Virus record (IMG/VR): IMGVR_UViG_3300027904_000001
Origin: a virus
Reading direction: 5' to 3' (one strand)
DNA length: 64,000 bases
The position numbers and the translations under genes were made by a program. Numbering within the stretch: the first letter of the stretch is position 1; the number at the start of each line of letters is the position of its first letter. The notes below the pieces were generated by a model that was not told the origin of the DNA, searched no databases, and was given only the letters and a program-made list of their open reading frames with translations. This document shows, one piece after another, positions 13,247-20,842 of this stretch.

Positions 13247-14374
13247 TTATTTTGTTAAAACTGTATATAATACATCCGCTAGCGGAACCATGGCATTGGT
13301 TGCCTCGCCTATTGAATTCTTGTCAGAGCCAACTTCGACCAATATTGACTTAGCCCGCTGAAACGTAGAATACCTATGCTTATGCAAGTATATAGGCCGC
13401 ATCAAACCTGGATATTTCTCGTTAGCTTCTAAAAATAGTTGCAACGAAAACGCAGTATTTTCAAAAACATAGGGATTGTACAATCCACCTTTTGACAACC
13501 CGTTAAAAAACATAATTCTTGCAGTTGGCCTGTCGTCGAACATTGTCATAAATTTGCTCGGAGTGCCGTCACGGTGCATATCGATCACAATTTCTATGGA
13601 CGGATACATAGCGAGAGCTTCTCTTATTACTTCTTCTGAATATTCATAACTGCTGTAAAACTCGCCTGGCGGCACATATACATTTTCTATATGCAAAACA
13701 GATACTTTATAGTTTGTTTTCAAAATATTTGTAAGCATCTTTCCTACCCCTACGATAGAATCTGCTAATTCACCTGGTCTGCTATTTGAAAATGTTTCAT
13801 GACTGTGAGTATGAATGATCAATATCTTATAATCATCCCCGCTTAAATCTGTTTTGCAGTTATATGATAACATTTTATCTATAGGAAAATCTGATATACT
13901 AACGGAAACTTCTGCATCTACTATATACACATATCTTTTTAGTAAATCTAAGTTGTCTTTTATCCCTAGAATACCTAAGCGTGTAACCCCCTCAGCCGCT
14001 GGAGCTATTGGTATTGATGGCAGATTTTCTTGTTCTGACCTTGTTGTGATTTCGCCCTCTGTCCCATCCCAATTTGTTATCTTTGTAACCGTAACGTTAG
14101 ATGAAATATCCCGAGCTGATGCCAAAATCTCATCATTTATTCCGTACAGTGGATCATCTGAATTAATCGGATTCTTGTCACCTTCATTCTCCTTATATGA
14201 CAATTCGAGATTTATTTTACTTGCATTCCCAACAATAGATAATATCTCATCTGGAATAATTTCTGTAAATTCTTGTTTGATTTGCTCAACAACTGCATCT
14301 TTTTCTGGTGTTGGATTGAAATTTACTATTATATAGATGATGATAATTATAATTGCAACATCACCTATCTTCAT
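13247..14374 (-). CDS. SpoIIP-family protein (stage II sporulation protein P-like cell-wall hydrolase), membrane anchored
   Basis: N-terminal TM segment. KILIIHTHSHETFSNSRPGE resembles the SpoIIP (I/L)YHTHS.E(S/A)(Y/F) signature. Confidence 0.6.
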   Translation of the reverse strand: MKIGDVAIIIIIIYIIVNFNPTPEKDAVVEQIKQEFTEIIPDEILSIVGNASKINLELSYKENEGDKNPINSDDPLYGINDEILASARDISSNVTVTKITNWDGTEGEITTRSEQENLPSIPIAPAAEGVTRLGILGIKDNLDLLKRYVYIVDAEVSVSISDFPIDKMLSYNCKTDLSGDDYKILIIHTHSHETFSNSRPGELADSIVGVGKMLTNILKTNYKVSVLHIENVYVPPGEFYSSYEYSEEVIREALAMYPSIEIVIDMHRDGTPSKFMTMFDDRPTARIMFFNGLSKGGLYNPYVFENTAFSLQLFLEANEKYPGLMRPIYLHKHRYSTFQRAKSILVEVGSDKNSIGEATNAMVPLADVLYTVLTK

Positions 14375-14610
14375 TCAGTTAACTCAACCCCCTTCATAAT
14401 ATTAATTATTATCACATACACAAAAATCCCTATAAAAATCATCATCCTTCCTTTCATACATCTTTCTTCATTGATTAAATAATGGTTACTTTTATAGTTT
14501 ATCCACGGAAGTGCTTTTATATACCAATATTTTTTCGCTATGGTAAAAATTATTAATATCCCAATTCTTATGCACCAGAATATTAAATTTTTATCCAAGT
14601 TATACATCAC
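14371..14610 (-). CDS. Membrane protein
   Basis: Two hydrophobic segments. Confidence 0.4.
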   Translation of the reverse strand: MMYNLDKNLIFWCIRIGILIIFTIAKKYWYIKALPWINYKSNHYLINEERCMKGRMMIFIGIFVYVIIINIMKGVELTE

Positions 14611-17615: not shown

Positions 17616-19451
17616 ATGAAATGGATATACCTTGCAGGAGCCGGAGTATTGGAGCTGAATTTTTTATTAGGGAAAGAAAAGCTTCAAGTAAAAAAAATAT
17701 CTAACAAAATAATAAATTCTGTAGCATGGTTAACGTCAATATCTACAACACTTGGCGGGCATTATGATATGGGTGTTTTTGGAGCAGTATTAAATTATGT
17801 TACTACAAGCAAGGTTGGGCTTGTACCTATTGCAGTTGGCACAGGGCTTATGACAGTACATTGGCTTTTTTCCTTGATGGATTTAACGCTTGGTGAAGCT
17901 ATTGATAAACTATTAGAAGGGACGCCATTTGGTGATTTCAGTTTTGTAGATTTCAAGAATAATCAAATGAATAAAATGGCTGATACTATTAGTCGAAATG
18001 ATATATTGTCAAAGATAATCAAGCCTGAATATTTCCAGCAAAAACAACAAACAGCATCGATTAACGTTAAACCGTTGCTTGATCTGTTTGAAGAAATGAA
18101 AATTAACGCCAATGTGATAGACATTGAAGATAATGAATATATGACAAGATTTCATATTGATCTGTATGGAGGAACGCAAGCTAGCAGAATAAGAACTATA
18201 GAAGAAGATATTGCCATAAAATTAGGGAAATTAATTACGATACCAGAGAACACTAATGAGGGGCTTGTTATTGAAGCTCATAAAAAACAAGACAAGACAA
18301 ATATATTGCATGCAGATTTTGTTTTTGATACGGTAGACTTTGGTCAATACCCCCTAGGTACAATTGCATTGGGGATAAACAAAAGCAACAGAGAAATGAT
18401 GTTTTATAATATAACAGAAGAATGCCACTGTATGATTTGTGGCAAAAATAAAAGCGGTAAAAGTAGATTCTTAGATATGATACTATTATCATTGATTAAG
18501 CATCCAGCCGCTACACCAGACACTCTAAATTTTATTTTTATTGCCGGAAGCGATAAGACCGGAGATCTAGGACAATATAATAATCTAGCATTTAACCGTT
18601 TTCATCAAGTAGCGGGGAATATTGAAAATATTGAAAAAAGCATTAAATGGATTCAAAATGAAAATGAGCATAGAAAATCAATTTTAAGCGATGCGAATGT
18701 TAGGGATATGGACGCTTATAACGCAATGAATCCAGAATGCCAATTCCCACGAATAATATTTATGGTAGACGAATTCGCAAACATGCTTAACAAATATCCT
18801 GAACTGGAGGATACATTTGTTTATTTTAGTAATGAGACAAGGGCACAAAACATAAATATGATTCTTGTATCTCAAAGTGCGAAAGCGAATGAATTCCCTA
18901 CGTCTATCAGCAAAAACTTCAAGGGATTTTGTTTTAGCGTTAAAACATACCAGGAATCGCGAAATGTTATCGGCTTTAAGGGAGCCGAAAAAATTCTTAC
19001 AAAAGGTACTTTCATGTGCGAATTGGATGGAGAATTACTGACTATCCAAGCTCCCTTATGTTCTGATGAATTGATTGATAATACCATAAAAAAATACAGG
19101 ATAACTCCTAGTCAAAGTGAAAAGGATGAGTTGGTTTATGATAATGTTATTAGGCTTAAGGATAAAAATAATTATACTAGTGCAAACTTAAAAAAAATAA
19201 ACTATTATCGCGAAACAATAGAGGTTTTTATAGATGACGATTATATCTCTGCCAATAAAATAGCCAGATATTTTCATATCGGCAAAGATAAGGCAGAAGA
19301 AATAATTAAGTATTTCATAAAATCTGACCCCAAAATGTCTTTGATTGAACCAACAAATGATAAAAATAAGCCCTATAGATGGTTGATAACAAGGGATGAA
19401 TGGAATAAATTTAAGACGACTATTGATCAGAGACATGGGAGGACAAGATGA
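17616..19451 (+). CDS. FtsK/SpoIIIE-family DNA translocase-like ATPase (TcpA/TraB-like), membrane anchored; true start probably upstream at about 17457 (ATT)
   Basis: Walker A CMICGKNKSGKS and Walker B IIFMVDEFANM. The in-frame upstream 17445..17615 encodes sequence homologous to the N-terminus of 16922..17431. Confidence 0.65.
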   Translation: MKWIYLAGAGVLELNFLLGKEKLQVKKISNKIINSVAWLTSISTTLGGHYDMGVFGAVLNYVTTSKVGLVPIAVGTGLMTVHWLFSLMDLTLGEAIDKLLEGTPFGDFSFVDFKNNQMNKMADTISRNDILSKIIKPEYFQQKQQTASINVKPLLDLFEEMKINANVIDIEDNEYMTRFHIDLYGGTQASRIRTIEEDIAIKLGKLITIPENTNEGLVIEAHKKQDKTNILHADFVFDTVDFGQYPLGTIALGINKSNREMMFYNITEECHCMICGKNKSGKSRFLDMILLSLIKHPAATPDTLNFIFIAGSDKTGDLGQYNNLAFNRFHQVAGNIENIEKSIKWIQNENEHRKSILSDANVRDMDAYNAMNPECQFPRIIFMVDEFANMLNKYPELEDTFVYFSNETRAQNINMILVSQSAKANEFPTSISKNFKGFCFSVKTYQESRNVIGFKGAEKILTKGTFMCELDGELLTIQAPLCSDELIDNTIKKYRITPSQSEKDELVYDNVIRLKDKNNYTSANLKKINYYRETIEVFIDDDYISANKIARYFHIGKDKAEEIIKYFIKSDPKMSLIEPTNDKNKPYRWLITRDEWNKFKTTIDQRHGRTR

Positions 19452-20842
19452 AAGAAAATAAAAGTCTATTTTACTTGATAATAATTATTATATTGTTTTT
19501 TATAAATTATAAAGGTGAGAAACCAATCGATTTGGCGATTGATAAATCTAAGGAATTTTTAGAAAAAACAGACATGCCAGACCAAATTATAAAAGCAGAA
19601 AACGATATTATTGTAAAGACAAATGAAGAAAATAAAACAATAGAATTTAAACAGCCTGAAGAAGAAAATAAGGTAAAATCAAATGAGATGGCAACAGATT
19701 CTGGACTGCAACCTGAGCTTAACGTCATACCAAAATCAAGCTTAGGACAAAAGATAAGAGTTGTACTGAATTCAACGAATTTTACTAGTTTAATGCATAA
19801 TACTGTTTCGGTAACGTCAGCGGGGGCGTATTATGTAACGATTGATGATAATCGTACAGAATGCGCCGGAGGATATGTTTTTACCGTAAAAGATACAGAT
19901 ATATTCGATAAAATTTTTATAAGGCCGATAGATATTAATGACAAAATTAAAATAACTAGCATTAAACGGCATAATGTAAGCCCAGAATATCGCGGTTTTC
20001 TGGAAATTTGTAAAAAAAGTGGATTCCTGGTTATAGTGAATCAATTATACTTGGAAGAATACTTGTATGCTGTGGTTCCTAGTGAAATGCCATTATCATT
20101 TGGTTTAGAAGCATTAAAGGTACAGGCGATTTGCGCCCGGACATATGCTATTTTTCAGATGGAACAAAATAGATTTAGAGATTATAACGCCGATGTTGAT
20201 GATTCTGTGAATTGTCAGGTTTATAATAACGTTCCTGAAAACGATTTGACTGTTCAGGCTGTTAACGAAACAAACAGTCAAGTTATAACTTATAATGAGC
20301 AAGTAATCCCTGCTTACTTCTTTTCAACATCTTGTGGCAATACTGCCAATGGTGAAGATGTTTGGGGGAGCAGAATTGAGTATTTGCGTGCAAAGCGGCA
20401 ATATACTGGTATTGAATTCATGGATTTTATTGAACTGATTAAAACAAATGAATTCAATGCGTATGATAATGCAAGCCCATGGTTTCGATGGCAAGTGACA
20501 ATGCCGCATTCTGTCGAAGTATTAGCTAGAGGACAGGGGCAAAACGTTACAAGAGCAAAAATTAATGGGGACATAGTAGAAGGTGAGTTAAGAATACGAC
20601 AAGCCTTGAATCCCGATGGATATACAATTTATAAACATGATGGTTCAGAAATGAATAATTATACGATTTTACCAAGCTCATTTTTTATCGTTGCAGACAA
20701 TACGATTATCGGCGGAGGTAATGGACATGGAGTCGGCTTGAGTCAATATGGTGTAAAGGGAATGATAGAAAGAGAATATAGTATAGAAAATATTCTGAAA
20801 CATTATTATCCAGATACCGAATTAGTACAGTACTGGAAATAG
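19448..20842 (+). CDS. SpoIID/LytB-domain protein (stage II sporulation protein D-like), signal peptide
   Basis: LEEYLYAVVPSEMP...EALKVQAICARTYA...FFSTSCGNT are SpoIID signatures. Confidence 0.65.
   Translation: MKENKSLFYLIIIIILFFINYKGEKPIDLAIDKSKEFLEKTDMPDQIIKAENDIIVKTNEENKTIEFKQPEEENKVKSNEMATDSGLQPELNVIPKSSLGQKIRVVLNSTNFTSLMHNTVSVTSAGAYYVTIDDNRTECAGGYVFTVKDTDIFDKIFIRPIDINDKIKITSIKRHNVSPEYRGFLEICKKSGFLVIVNQLYLEEYLYAVVPSEMPLSFGLEALKVQAICARTYAIFQMEQNRFRDYNADVDDSVNCQVYNNVPENDLTVQAVNETNSQVITYNEQVIPAYFFSTSCGNTANGEDVWGSRIEYLRAKRQYTGIEFMDFIELIKTNEFNAYDNASPWFRWQVTMPHSVEVLARGQGQNVTRAKINGDIVEGELRIRQALNPDGYTIYKHDGSEMNNYTILPSSFFIVADNTIIGGGNGHGVGLSQYGVKGMIEREYSIENILKHYYPDTELVQYWK

Follow-up and report, generated by a model that had tools for sequence, protein, structure and literature searches.

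A divergent two-operon cassette of SpoIIP-, SpoIID-, FtsK/SpoIIIE- and ParM-like genes on a circularly assembled tailed-phage genome and its possible role in prophage inheritance at the septum

The virus record IMGVR_UViG_3300027904_000001 was analyzed over a stretch of 64,000 nucleotides (nt), referred to below as the window. The region 13247-20842 of this tailed-phage DNA harbors a cassette of genes which encode a SpoIIP-family hydrolase, an actin-like ATPase of the ParM/StbA type, a translocase for double-stranded DNA (dsDNA) of the FtsK/SpoIIIE type and a lytic transglycosylase with a SpoIID/LytB domain, together with several small proteins (Table 1). The original prediction for this DNA had made the same four domain calls, and all of them held at their predicted positions in a Pfam scan (SpoIIP, ALP_N, FtsK_SpoIIIE and SpoIID). 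As had also been stated there, the SpoIIP gene is located on the opposite strand, in a leftward block.

Gene spacing and regulatory signals indicate that the cassette is organized as two divergent operons, which would be read outward from the control region between the HTH_17 gene and the actin-like gene. This arrangement is proposed because of overlapping open reading frames (ORFs), a promoter-like site, and the position of the sole strong hairpin on the + strand, right after the stop codon of the SpoIID-like gene. In the leftward block, composed of the genes for a helix-turn-helix (HTH) protein, two proteins with two transmembrane (TM) segments each and the SpoIIP-like protein, the ORFs overlap by a few bases. 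The ends of the two-TM genes overlap each other and the start of the SpoIIP gene, which suggests translational coupling. On the other side, the start of the SpoIID-like gene overlaps the stop of the FtsK-like gene by 4 nt. A promoter scan gave the site TTGACA-17-TACCAT at 15386-15414, ahead of the actin-like gene, and a terminator scan gave no terminator-like site on the + strand between this promoter-like site and the hairpin that starts at 20841. This hairpin is likely the terminator which closes the rightward operon. The control region itself is a candidate operator or centromere; it contains the short repeats TATCATAGYG (two copies, 15082-15101) and CAGCGAAC (two copies, 15241-15262) and the inverted repeat GCTGGGAA/TTCCCAGC at about 15201-15243. 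It also contains one match to the Spo0A box (15262-15268), which was not counted as evidence. It is uncertain if the DUF4230 gene at the end of the leftward block is a member of the module.

Table 1. Features of the cassette and the Spo0A effector gene of the same phage (positions in the window; aa, amino acids)
Feature	Position	Strand	Basis and remarks
DUF4230 protein, 183 aa	12349-12900	-	Pfam PF14014, E = 1.8e-7; last leftward gene, downstream of the SpoIIP gene
52-aa single-pass membrane protein	13075-13233	-	hydrophobic segment at residues 5-23; directly downstream of the SpoIIP-like gene
SpoIIP-family hydrolase, 375 aa	13247-14374	-	Pfam SpoIIP PF07454, E = 3.7e-46, 158.3 bits
Two small proteins with two TM segments each, 79 and 82 aa (longest ORF)	14371-14855	-	hydrophobic segments; no family match
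56-aa HTH_17 (excisionase/MerR-like) DNA-binding protein	14861-15031	-	faint PF12728 match; first gene of the leftward operon
Divergent intergenic control region	15032-15462	.	promoter-like site, short repeats, inverted repeat
Actin-like ParM/StbA-type ATPase, 349 aa	15463-16512	+	Pfam ALP_N PF17989, E = 1e-8
124-aa protein at the ParR/adaptor position	16525-16899	+	no family match
169-aa polytopic membrane protein	16922-17431	+	paralogous to the membrane domain at the N-terminus of the FtsK-like protein
FtsK/SpoIIIE-type dsDNA translocase	17460-19451 with the probable start (listed ORF 17616-19451, ATG 17616)	+	FtsK_SpoIIIE PF01580, E = 1.9e-16; FtsK_alpha PF17854, E = 8.3e-5
SpoIID/LytB-domain lytic transglycosylase, 464 aa	19448-20842	+	Pfam SpoIID PF08486, E = 7.2e-27
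GC-rich hairpin AGCCGGG-TACAAC-CCCGGCT	20841-20860	+	terminator scan; between convergent genes
Spo0A effector-domain-only protein without receiver, 232 aa	42442-43140	+	Pfam Spo0A_C, E = 8.4e-27

The SpoIIP-like protein is composed of an N-terminal hydrophobic membrane anchor and an extracytoplasmic catalytic domain, and passes the Pfam model PF07454, for which the cut-off is 24.4 bits. Its nearest relatives are chromosomal SpoIIP proteins of Clostridia with ca. 42% sequence identity. The family-invariant residues H188, H190, E193, H228, D265, H267, R268, D269 and E347 are all retained, and the motifs HTHxxE (H188, H190, E193) and DxHRD (D265, H267, R268, D269) are invariant in an alignment of 16 members that includes the phage protein. 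Two catalytic histidines, H142 and H222, have been established for SpoIIP of C. difficile (PMC6221140), and judged by motif and spacing the two phage motifs appear to correspond to these. In all endospore formers spoIIP belongs to the core genes, together with spoIID and spoIIM (PMC3533761).

The SpoIID-like protein likewise starts with a hydrophobic membrane anchor and passes the models for the SpoIID/LytB domain, with 198.2 bits for TIGR02669 (cut-off 83.3) and 94.3 bits for the Pfam family (cut-off 23). Its closest relatives are chromosomal proteins of 450-800 aa with ca. 40% identity, some of which carry SLH domains. Residue E213 aligns with chain residue 77 of the structure 5i1t. On the assumption that the chain begins with residue 25, an offset inferred from its length of 330, this position is E101 of C. 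difficile SpoIID, for which a catalytic role has been described (PMC6221140). E213 and the motifs FSTS and GHGVG are invariant in the family alignment. SpoIID-type enzymes cut only glycan that has already been stripped by SpoIIP (PMC6221140), and for this reason it makes enzymatic sense that the phage carries both enzymes. As a separate observation, next to one of the chromosomal SpoIID/LytB homologues (locus L008, 5241-7781) a 275-aa fragment of a penicillin-binding protein (Transpeptidase and PASTA domains) abuts a 491-aa large serine recombinase; this fragment could represent a gene split by intervening DNA comparable to skin-type elements.

The third enzyme, the FtsK/SpoIIIE-like pump, consists of a membrane domain, a motor part with an alpha domain and a RecA-like beta domain, and a winged helix that resembles the gamma domain. 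It matches the FtsK structure 2ius in the PDB with E = 1.9e-18, against ca. 1e-5 for conjugative coupling proteins. A single continuous BLASTP alignment to ordinary FtsK extends over residues 197-649, including the gamma region (E = 8e-35); the match of the gamma region to the Pfam model FtsK_gamma is weak (15.4 bits, E = 0.016, cut-off 30.6). The Walker A lysine (K334), the Walker B residues D437 and E438 (Glu596), the sensor Q472 (Gln631) and the arginine finger R461 (Arg620) are kept, where the numbers in three-letter code are those of P. aeruginosa FtsK (bioRxiv 10.1101/2022.01.03.474797). With the catalytic residues present in all three of the SpoIIP-, SpoIID- and FtsK-like proteins, these enzymes look active. 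A loss of catalytic residues from the hydrolases, which would have spoken against the original prediction, was thus not seen.

The gene preceding the pump encodes a 169-aa protein which is homologous to the N-terminal ca. 140 residues of the FtsK-like protein (32% identity over 131 aa with the extended translation, E = 4e-24, BLASTP). This paralogue has three strong hydrophobic segments, and the segments of the FtsK-like protein itself are weaker. The reading frame of the FtsK-like gene is open from 17445, and because the homology to the paralogue begins within this open frame, ca. 50 codons upstream of the annotated ATG, the gene probably starts upstream of the ATG, most plausibly at a non-canonical ATT codon at ca. 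17460-17463, behind GAGAGGAG. The public calls of this gene (600 or 611 aa) are probably too short at the N-terminus.

The FtsK-like protein can be regarded as an orphan: among 1.84 billion representatives searched in full with HMMER, there was no relative with more than 30% identity. The best relative with matching architecture, P0129, is a protein of 643 aa with 28% identity, encoded on a 15-kb mobile-element contig (JGI Ga0123355_10008830; locus L004, 872-3787). The P0129 gene is preceded by a resolvase gene and an HTH_17 gene and followed by genes for a primase-helicase and a PBECR4 protein, which suggests that mobile elements carry a small family of FtsK-like pumps with an HTH_17 protein as partner. 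A role in a defence system was also considered and rejected, PADLOC giving just generic FtsK-ATPase similarity to SspH/mad8. Likewise, the heptamer CGGATGA, which has a strand skew of 13:0, was discarded as a guide motif for the pump, as 12 of the 13 copies occur as in-frame codons in the +-strand gene block and reflect coding bias.

Among known proteins, the actin-like protein is similar to ParM/StbA proteins encoded by the Clostridium phages vB_CpeS-1181 and LPCPA58 and by C. perfringens plasmids of 38-54 kb (27.6% identity over 93% of the length), and the phosphate-binding motifs DLGAG, DIGNRT and GYGS are visible in its sequence. The 124-aa protein encoded next to it shows no similarity to the product of the gene downstream of parM in vB_CpeS-1181. 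Its AlphaFold2 model is of low confidence (predicted local distance difference test score 66) and consists of a beta-alpha-alpha core and a C-terminal helix, for which there was no fold match. Thus, of the ParM partition cassette that had been predicted here the actin-like gene stands, while the 124-aa protein as adaptor (ParR) and the centromere parC are putative and unproven.

The cassette is embedded in a phage genome. The window contains tailed-phage genes for the large terminase (TerL), an SPP1-type portal, a scaffold and the major capsid protein, as well as for a replication initiator, a primase-helicase and methyltransferases, and the remaining head and tail genes, the tape-measure gene, a CI-type HTH gene and Phage_rep_O are found in the same genome outside the window. 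A canonical lysis cassette of holin and Amidase_2 adjoins a tail-fibre gene, and the gene set for virion, packaging and lysis (TerL, portal, scaffold, capsid, tape measure, holin, Amidase_2) is complete. The presence of holin and Amidase_2 at the tail genes rules out the SpoIID- and SpoIIP-like proteins as the main endolysin, and a role of the FtsK-like protein as packaging ATPase, which had been raised with the original prediction, is ruled out by the separate canonical terminase and portal and by the membrane anchor. The main lysin and the packaging motor of the phage are thus encoded outside the cassette.

Proteins identical to the SpoIID-like and SpoIIP-like proteins have been deposited as proteins of a Firmicutes metagenome-assembled genome (MAG), on a contig of 89,217 bp, and an ENA assembly of the same element gives a contig of 89,136 bp. 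Two loci of the ENA contig map onto the window at 100% identity with wrapping coordinates. Because the offset of the wrap is exactly 141 nt, which is the k of the assembler, and because the junction is bridged by an independent contig, the assembly is circular, with a length of ca. 88,995 bp. Three independent assemblies contain the cassette between identical phage flanks, with 100% sequence identity, and its guanine-cytosine (GC) content of 0.29-0.32 agrees with that of the remaining window. Neither an integrase nor a recombinase was detected among ORFs of at least 180 aa and the precomputed gene calls, which cover all but ca. 6.8 kb of the genome; ca. 4.8 kb of this remainder corresponds to unseen parts of the tape-measure gene and of a gene for a 710-aa tail-region protein. 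In view of the circular assembly, the missing integrase and the presence of RepA_N, Phage_rep_O, ParM-like and CI-type HTH genes, a phage-plasmid is the most economical reading. The element is most likely a temperate tailed phage of ca. 89 kb that exists as a circular plasmid in an endospore-forming host of the Clostridia type. The RepA_N gene (54051-54461) is located, together with genes for HTH_36 proteins, in a stretch of ca. 8.4 kb with mostly small ORFs between the large terminase and portal genes (51239-59657), which is an unusual site for replication and regulatory genes.

A further gene with a link to sporulation is found at some distance from the cassette and encodes a protein with the effector domain of Spo0A but without a receiver (Table 1). 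It matches only the C-terminal part of the Spo0A model TIGR02875 (113 bits, cut-off 200). At its N-terminus there is a weak, sub-threshold match to a Lar-like zinc ribbon. Similar Spo0A_C genes (38-41% identity) occur near PAPS-reductase genes at two loci in Clostridia MAGs (L123, 3248-3586; L127, 2277-2678).

Relatives of the cassette proteins are rare in phages. In 50,697 GenBank phage records, tblastn detected relatives of the SpoIIP-like protein in one and of the SpoIID-like protein in three unannotated faecal contigs, and the FtsK-like protein was absent from these contigs. Scans of 2.9 million IMG/VR contigs with patterns from single proteins or from SpoIIP and SpoIID family alignments gave no relatives, but few peptide patterns were used and absence is no proof here. 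A metagenome scan with a two-member alignment of the FtsK-like protein gave only the known relative and ordinary FtsK; its patterns were poor and it missed the known JGI copy. Nucleotide similarity of the cassette to the 50,697 phage and to 72,556 plasmid records yielded nothing useful. In PLSDB, copies of spoIIP and spoIID were found on megaplasmids of Priestia and Cytobacillus, far apart and without this pump. The Cytobacillus megaplasmids carry extra copies of both genes more than 150 kb apart, and the Priestia copies are in separate records (plasmid records of the two genera: NZ_CP085393.1, NZ_CP015507.1, NZ_CP097350.1); copies of engulfment genes on plasmids thus exist outside phages.

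A module on the - strand (20865-23061) flanks the cassette on the right side and converges with the SpoIID-like gene. It encodes an IbrB-like ParB protein (phrog_2159, E = 4.6e-71), an acetyltransferase of the GNAT type and an IbrA-like PAPS reductase/DUF3440 protein. A search that started from the PAPS reductase led to relatives at 144 loci, viral as well as genomic, which come from many phyla and also from archaeal MAGs. The ParB partner was present at 143 of these and the GNAT gene at 33, the three copies of this phage being included in both counts. None of the FtsK-like, SpoIID-like, SpoIIP-like and actin-like genes was found within 10 kb at any of the 144 loci. These gene neighborhoods mark the cassette as an insertion specific to its lineage, within an accessory region of mosaic composition. 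Its proteins are only ca. 25-42% identical to any chromosomal relative, and neither SpoIIP on a phage nor the clustered arrangement was found in the phage, plasmid, IMG/VR or neighboring-locus sets that were searched, apart from the faecal contig mentioned above. Phage-carried homologs of spoIIIE, spoIID and truncated spo0A and phage-plasmids of the ParM type are already known. New are the occurrence of SpoIIP on a phage, its clustering with an orphan FtsK/SpoIIIE-type pump, the duplicated membrane domain and the apparent co-transcription with a partition gene.

We tentatively propose, as a possibility that the present data favor without making it probable, that the two operons form a module which acts at the division or sporulation septum and keeps the prophage inherited, including into the forespore. 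In such a scheme the ParM/StbA-like actin, possibly with the 124-aa protein as adaptor, would push plasmid copies toward the poles. The membrane-anchored, hexameric FtsK/SpoIIIE-type pump would then move phage DNA trapped in the septum into the small compartment, guided by the gamma-like domain, and the stand-alone copy of the membrane domain (the 169-aa protein) may assist the pump. The SpoIIP-like amidase/endopeptidase would strip stem peptides, after which the co-translated SpoIID/LytB-type enzyme would cut the bare glycan, so that the septal wall is thinned around the pore or engulfment is driven. Finally, the receiver-less Spo0A effector may bias the host toward or away from sporulation. 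SpoIIIE of B. subtilis is described to keep the septal pore stable during hydrolysis of the septal wall (PMC13627676), and since the pore is maintained while the wall is hydrolyzed, the activities gathered in the cassette are known to meet at the polar septum. The septal location of the phage proteins, the timing of their expression, the co-operation of the parts and the purpose of spore entry are what we infer. In a stronger version, a self-contained apparatus for boarding spores would be made up of a constitutive Spo0A effector that turns sporulation on or off, an actin that brings the phage genome to the pole, a dedicated SpoIIIE-like pump which, with a DNA-reading domain of its own and an extra copy of its membrane domain, passes phage DNA through the polar septum, and a phage-owned pair of SpoIIP- and SpoIID-type enzymes that remodels the surrounding septal wall; this version appears unlikely. 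If true, it would mean that the machinery of the early sporulation septum had been copied and reconstructed by a mobile element to secure its vertical transmission.

Part of the evidence can also be read as a takeover of host development without any movement of phage DNA. The SpoIIP-, SpoIID- and FtsK-like genes would then be auxiliary sporulation genes, as would the Spo0A effector gene, and would speed up, complete or block polar septation or engulfment, a process which in B. subtilis is driven by the DMP proteins (SpoIID, SpoIIM and SpoIIP), and the adjacency of the ParM-like gene would be incidental, a result of accessory genes accumulating in this genome part. Phage-borne spoIIIE, spoIID and truncated spo0A genes have been documented and interpreted in this manner (PMC10294663), Spo0A_C is encoded in the same genome, the catalytic residues are intact, and the flanking IbrAB-like module, which is widespread, movable and never seen with the cassette elsewhere, points to a mosaic accessory region. 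We nevertheless find a mere takeover rather doubtful, as the FtsK-like and SpoIID-like genes overlap and apparently share a transcription unit with the ParM-like gene, the gamma-like DNA-reading domain of the pump points to a specific DNA substrate, and the SpoIID-like protein is not the sporulation orthologue. This last point would suit a role outside sporulation, in which the task of the pump is to remove or unlink dimers of the plasmid at ordinary septa, for instance through activation of the Xer recombinases of the host, and the hydrolases serve in separation of daughter cells, passage of the wall during infection or accessory lysis. Partition and multimer-resolution genes are commonly found together on plasmids. 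FtsK gamma domains are described as activators of XerD (PMC3130261), and the members of the LytB-type clade, often 600-800 aa long and some with SLH domains, all fail the sporulation equivalog. Such a role is nonetheless unlikely: no dif-like site was found in the 64-kb window with the consensus used, SpoIIP belongs to the core gene families of sporulation (PMC3533761), a lysis cassette of holin and Amidase_2 is already present, and Spo0A_C in the same genome indicates an involvement with sporulation.

Far less probable are two further explanations. A minimal conjugation or DNA-transfer apparatus of the Tcp/TraB type, by which dsDNA would pass between cells, had been put forward in the original prediction. 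On paper, a membrane FtsK-family ATPase next to wall hydrolases resembles TcpA and TcpG of the plasmid pCW3, or TraB, which forms a system of a single protein in Streptomyces. TraB has been grouped with the FtsK motors (PMC10250835). The proposal is not supported by the present analysis and is very improbable, as Pfam and PHROG scans and the precomputed calls, covering all but the ca. 6.8 kb mentioned above, gave no relaxase and no VirB4/TcpF, VirB6/TcpH or VirB8-like TcpC component of a type IV secretion system. Moreover, the ATPase, with its alpha, beta and gamma-like domains, fits FtsK far better than coupling proteins, the virion and lysis gene sets are full, and PLSDB plasmids with a related ParM lack the cassette. 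The alternative proposed for the same genes, phage-plasmid maintenance with hijacking of sporulation, fits the circular tailed phage described here, its ParM/StbA-type, RepA_N and Rep_O genes, the missing integrase and the receiver-less Spo0A. An error of assembly or binning, by which sporulation genes of the host chromosome ended up on a phage contig, is scarcely credible: the deposition of the proteins under a MAG named after Firmicutes would fit such an artefact, but the three independent assemblies share the same phage flanks at 100% identity, the GC content is that of the window, the proteins are too far from chromosomal relatives (just ca. 25-42% identity), and the circle has phage genes all round.

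Several observations weigh against the septal inheritance module that we prefer. The SpoIID-like protein fails the equivalog model of the sporulation protein SpoIID (TIGR02870, 150.3 bits, cut-off 234.75), as do its five nearest chromosomal relatives (117-150 bits), and because of these scores it is assigned by model comparison to a LytB-type paralogue clade instead of being an engulfment orthologue; a vegetative wall function is thus possible. Similarly, the SpoIIP-like protein scores 100.9 bits with the NCBIfam model TIGR02867, narrowly under the cut-off of 123.15, whereas four of the five SpoIIP-like relatives tested pass it (129-150 bits). No match to the SpoIIM family was found in any scanned ORF, and next to the SpoIIP gene there are just the two unrelated two-TM proteins of ca. 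80 aa. The DMP pair which had been thought to be re-created here consequently holds as to enzymology, with an amidase/endopeptidase and a transglycosylase that needs stripped glycan, but not as to the equivalog or SpoIIM. In the pump, Arg632 of the DNA-gripping loop II is replaced by S473 and its partner Asp599 by N441; the nearby K475 is common to P0129, and the contig of P0129 is without SpoIID or SpoIIP. A search of skewed 7-8-mers in the window gave no KOPS/SRS-like guide motif independent of coding bias, the number of Spo0A boxes in the window (35, with 25±5 expected) is not significant, and no clear parC repeat array was found, there being just two-copy short repeats and one inverted repeat upstream of the actin-like gene. 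Furthermore, the cassette is a singleton, represented by three near-identical assemblies only, and comparative support that its parts stay together or co-evolve is therefore missing. The plasmid state is read solely from the missing integrase and from the partition and replication genes, and a circular assembly would be expected of a circularly permuted virion genome as well.

Some other genes of the phage may be mentioned. Directly after the Spo0A_C gene, and slightly overlapping it, is a gene (43112-45697, +) for an 861-aa protein with the shoulder domain of the Major Vault Protein (PF11978, E = 1.3e-22) and a Vault_3 repeat (PF17795, E = 4e-9), without a match in PHROG or PADLOC. A 551-aa TROVE/Ro60-like RNA-binding protein is encoded at 25438-27093 (+; phrog_850, E = 2.6e-37; the Pfam TROVE match is weak, E = 0.0018), and this phage accordingly has two proteins with domains of the type related to eukaryotic ribonucleoproteins. 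The replication module includes a second, shorter protein with a PAPS_reduct domain (30540-31286, +; E = 3.5e-7). Up to three matches to Tad2-like Thoeris anti-defence proteins, one clear (E = 4e-8) and two weak, are found at 46492-46968 (+), 1375-1881 (-) and ca. 58.5 kb (L011, 5457-5711). Two large proteins (738 and 760 aa) with matches to beta-propellers of the Kelch type are encoded in the head-tail and tail-fibre regions (L011, 11214-13430; L013, 10890-13172).

Spores are the route of persistence and spread for many Firmicutes of gut and soil, and are assumed to protect bacteria against phages. Single look-alikes of sporulation genes are known in phages from surveys, without a mechanism. 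Here a partition motor, a septal pump and two wall chemistries of engulfment are found in one compact and apparently co-regulated unit, with a receiver-less Spo0A elsewhere in the genome. This leads to the concrete and testable hypothesis that a prophage kept as a plasmid brings about its own loading into the forespore. Moreover, the cassette offers for comparison very divergent proteins of the FtsK/SpoIIIE, SpoIID and SpoIIP types which, from their conserved residues, seem to be active. Should the genes instead have their role in ordinary division or lysis, they would extend the known accessory genes of phages only modestly.

The survey of sporulation genes in phages by Schwartz, Lennon and co-workers (mBio 2023, PMC10294663) lists spoIIIE, spoIID, parA/parB, PAPS reductase and effector-only spo0A, and genes of all these kinds occur in the phage described here. 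Unlike in this phage, where the genes are clustered in divergent operons, they were catalogued singly, and spoIIP is not in that list. With the SpoIID-SpoIIM-SpoIIP and SpoIIIE machinery of B. subtilis and C. difficile, the phage has in common the enzyme families, the sequential chemistry, the anchors, the membrane, alpha, beta and gamma-like domains of the pump and the catalytic residues. It differs in that no SpoIIM was found, that the SpoIID equivalog failed and that the SpoIIP-like protein is below the TIGR02867 cut-off. The pump shares at most ca. 25-28% identity with FtsK and SpoIIIE and has a changed DNA-gripping loop, and all genes are phage-encoded and linked to ParM.

Similar to the element studied here, the C. 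perfringens phages vB_CpeS-1181, phiCp-D and LPCPA58 and the 38-54 kb plasmids carry a homologous parM/stbA gene followed by a small ORF in the setting of a temperate phage or plasmid. In these elements there is no FtsK-like, SpoIID or SpoIIP gene near parM, and the small downstream ORFs are not detectably similar. The Tcp system of pCW3 and TraB of Streptomyces also place a membrane-anchored FtsK-family ATPase near wall hydrolases on a mobile element, and TraB reads DNA by means of a C-terminal winged helix. In contrast to these, the other Tcp or type IV secretion components and a relaxase were not found here, the element is a complete tailed phage, and the ATPase is FtsK-like, with an alpha domain, and not TcpA-like. 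Additionally, phages of the Bacillus cereus group, including gamma-like phages, encode an FtsK/SpoIIIE ATPase (PHROG 1358/3551) for which a role in DNA movement or host sporulation has been proposed. The identity to these homologs is below 27%, and the pump described here is distinguished by its place in an operon with a partition gene and a wall hydrolase, preceded by a copy of its own membrane domain.

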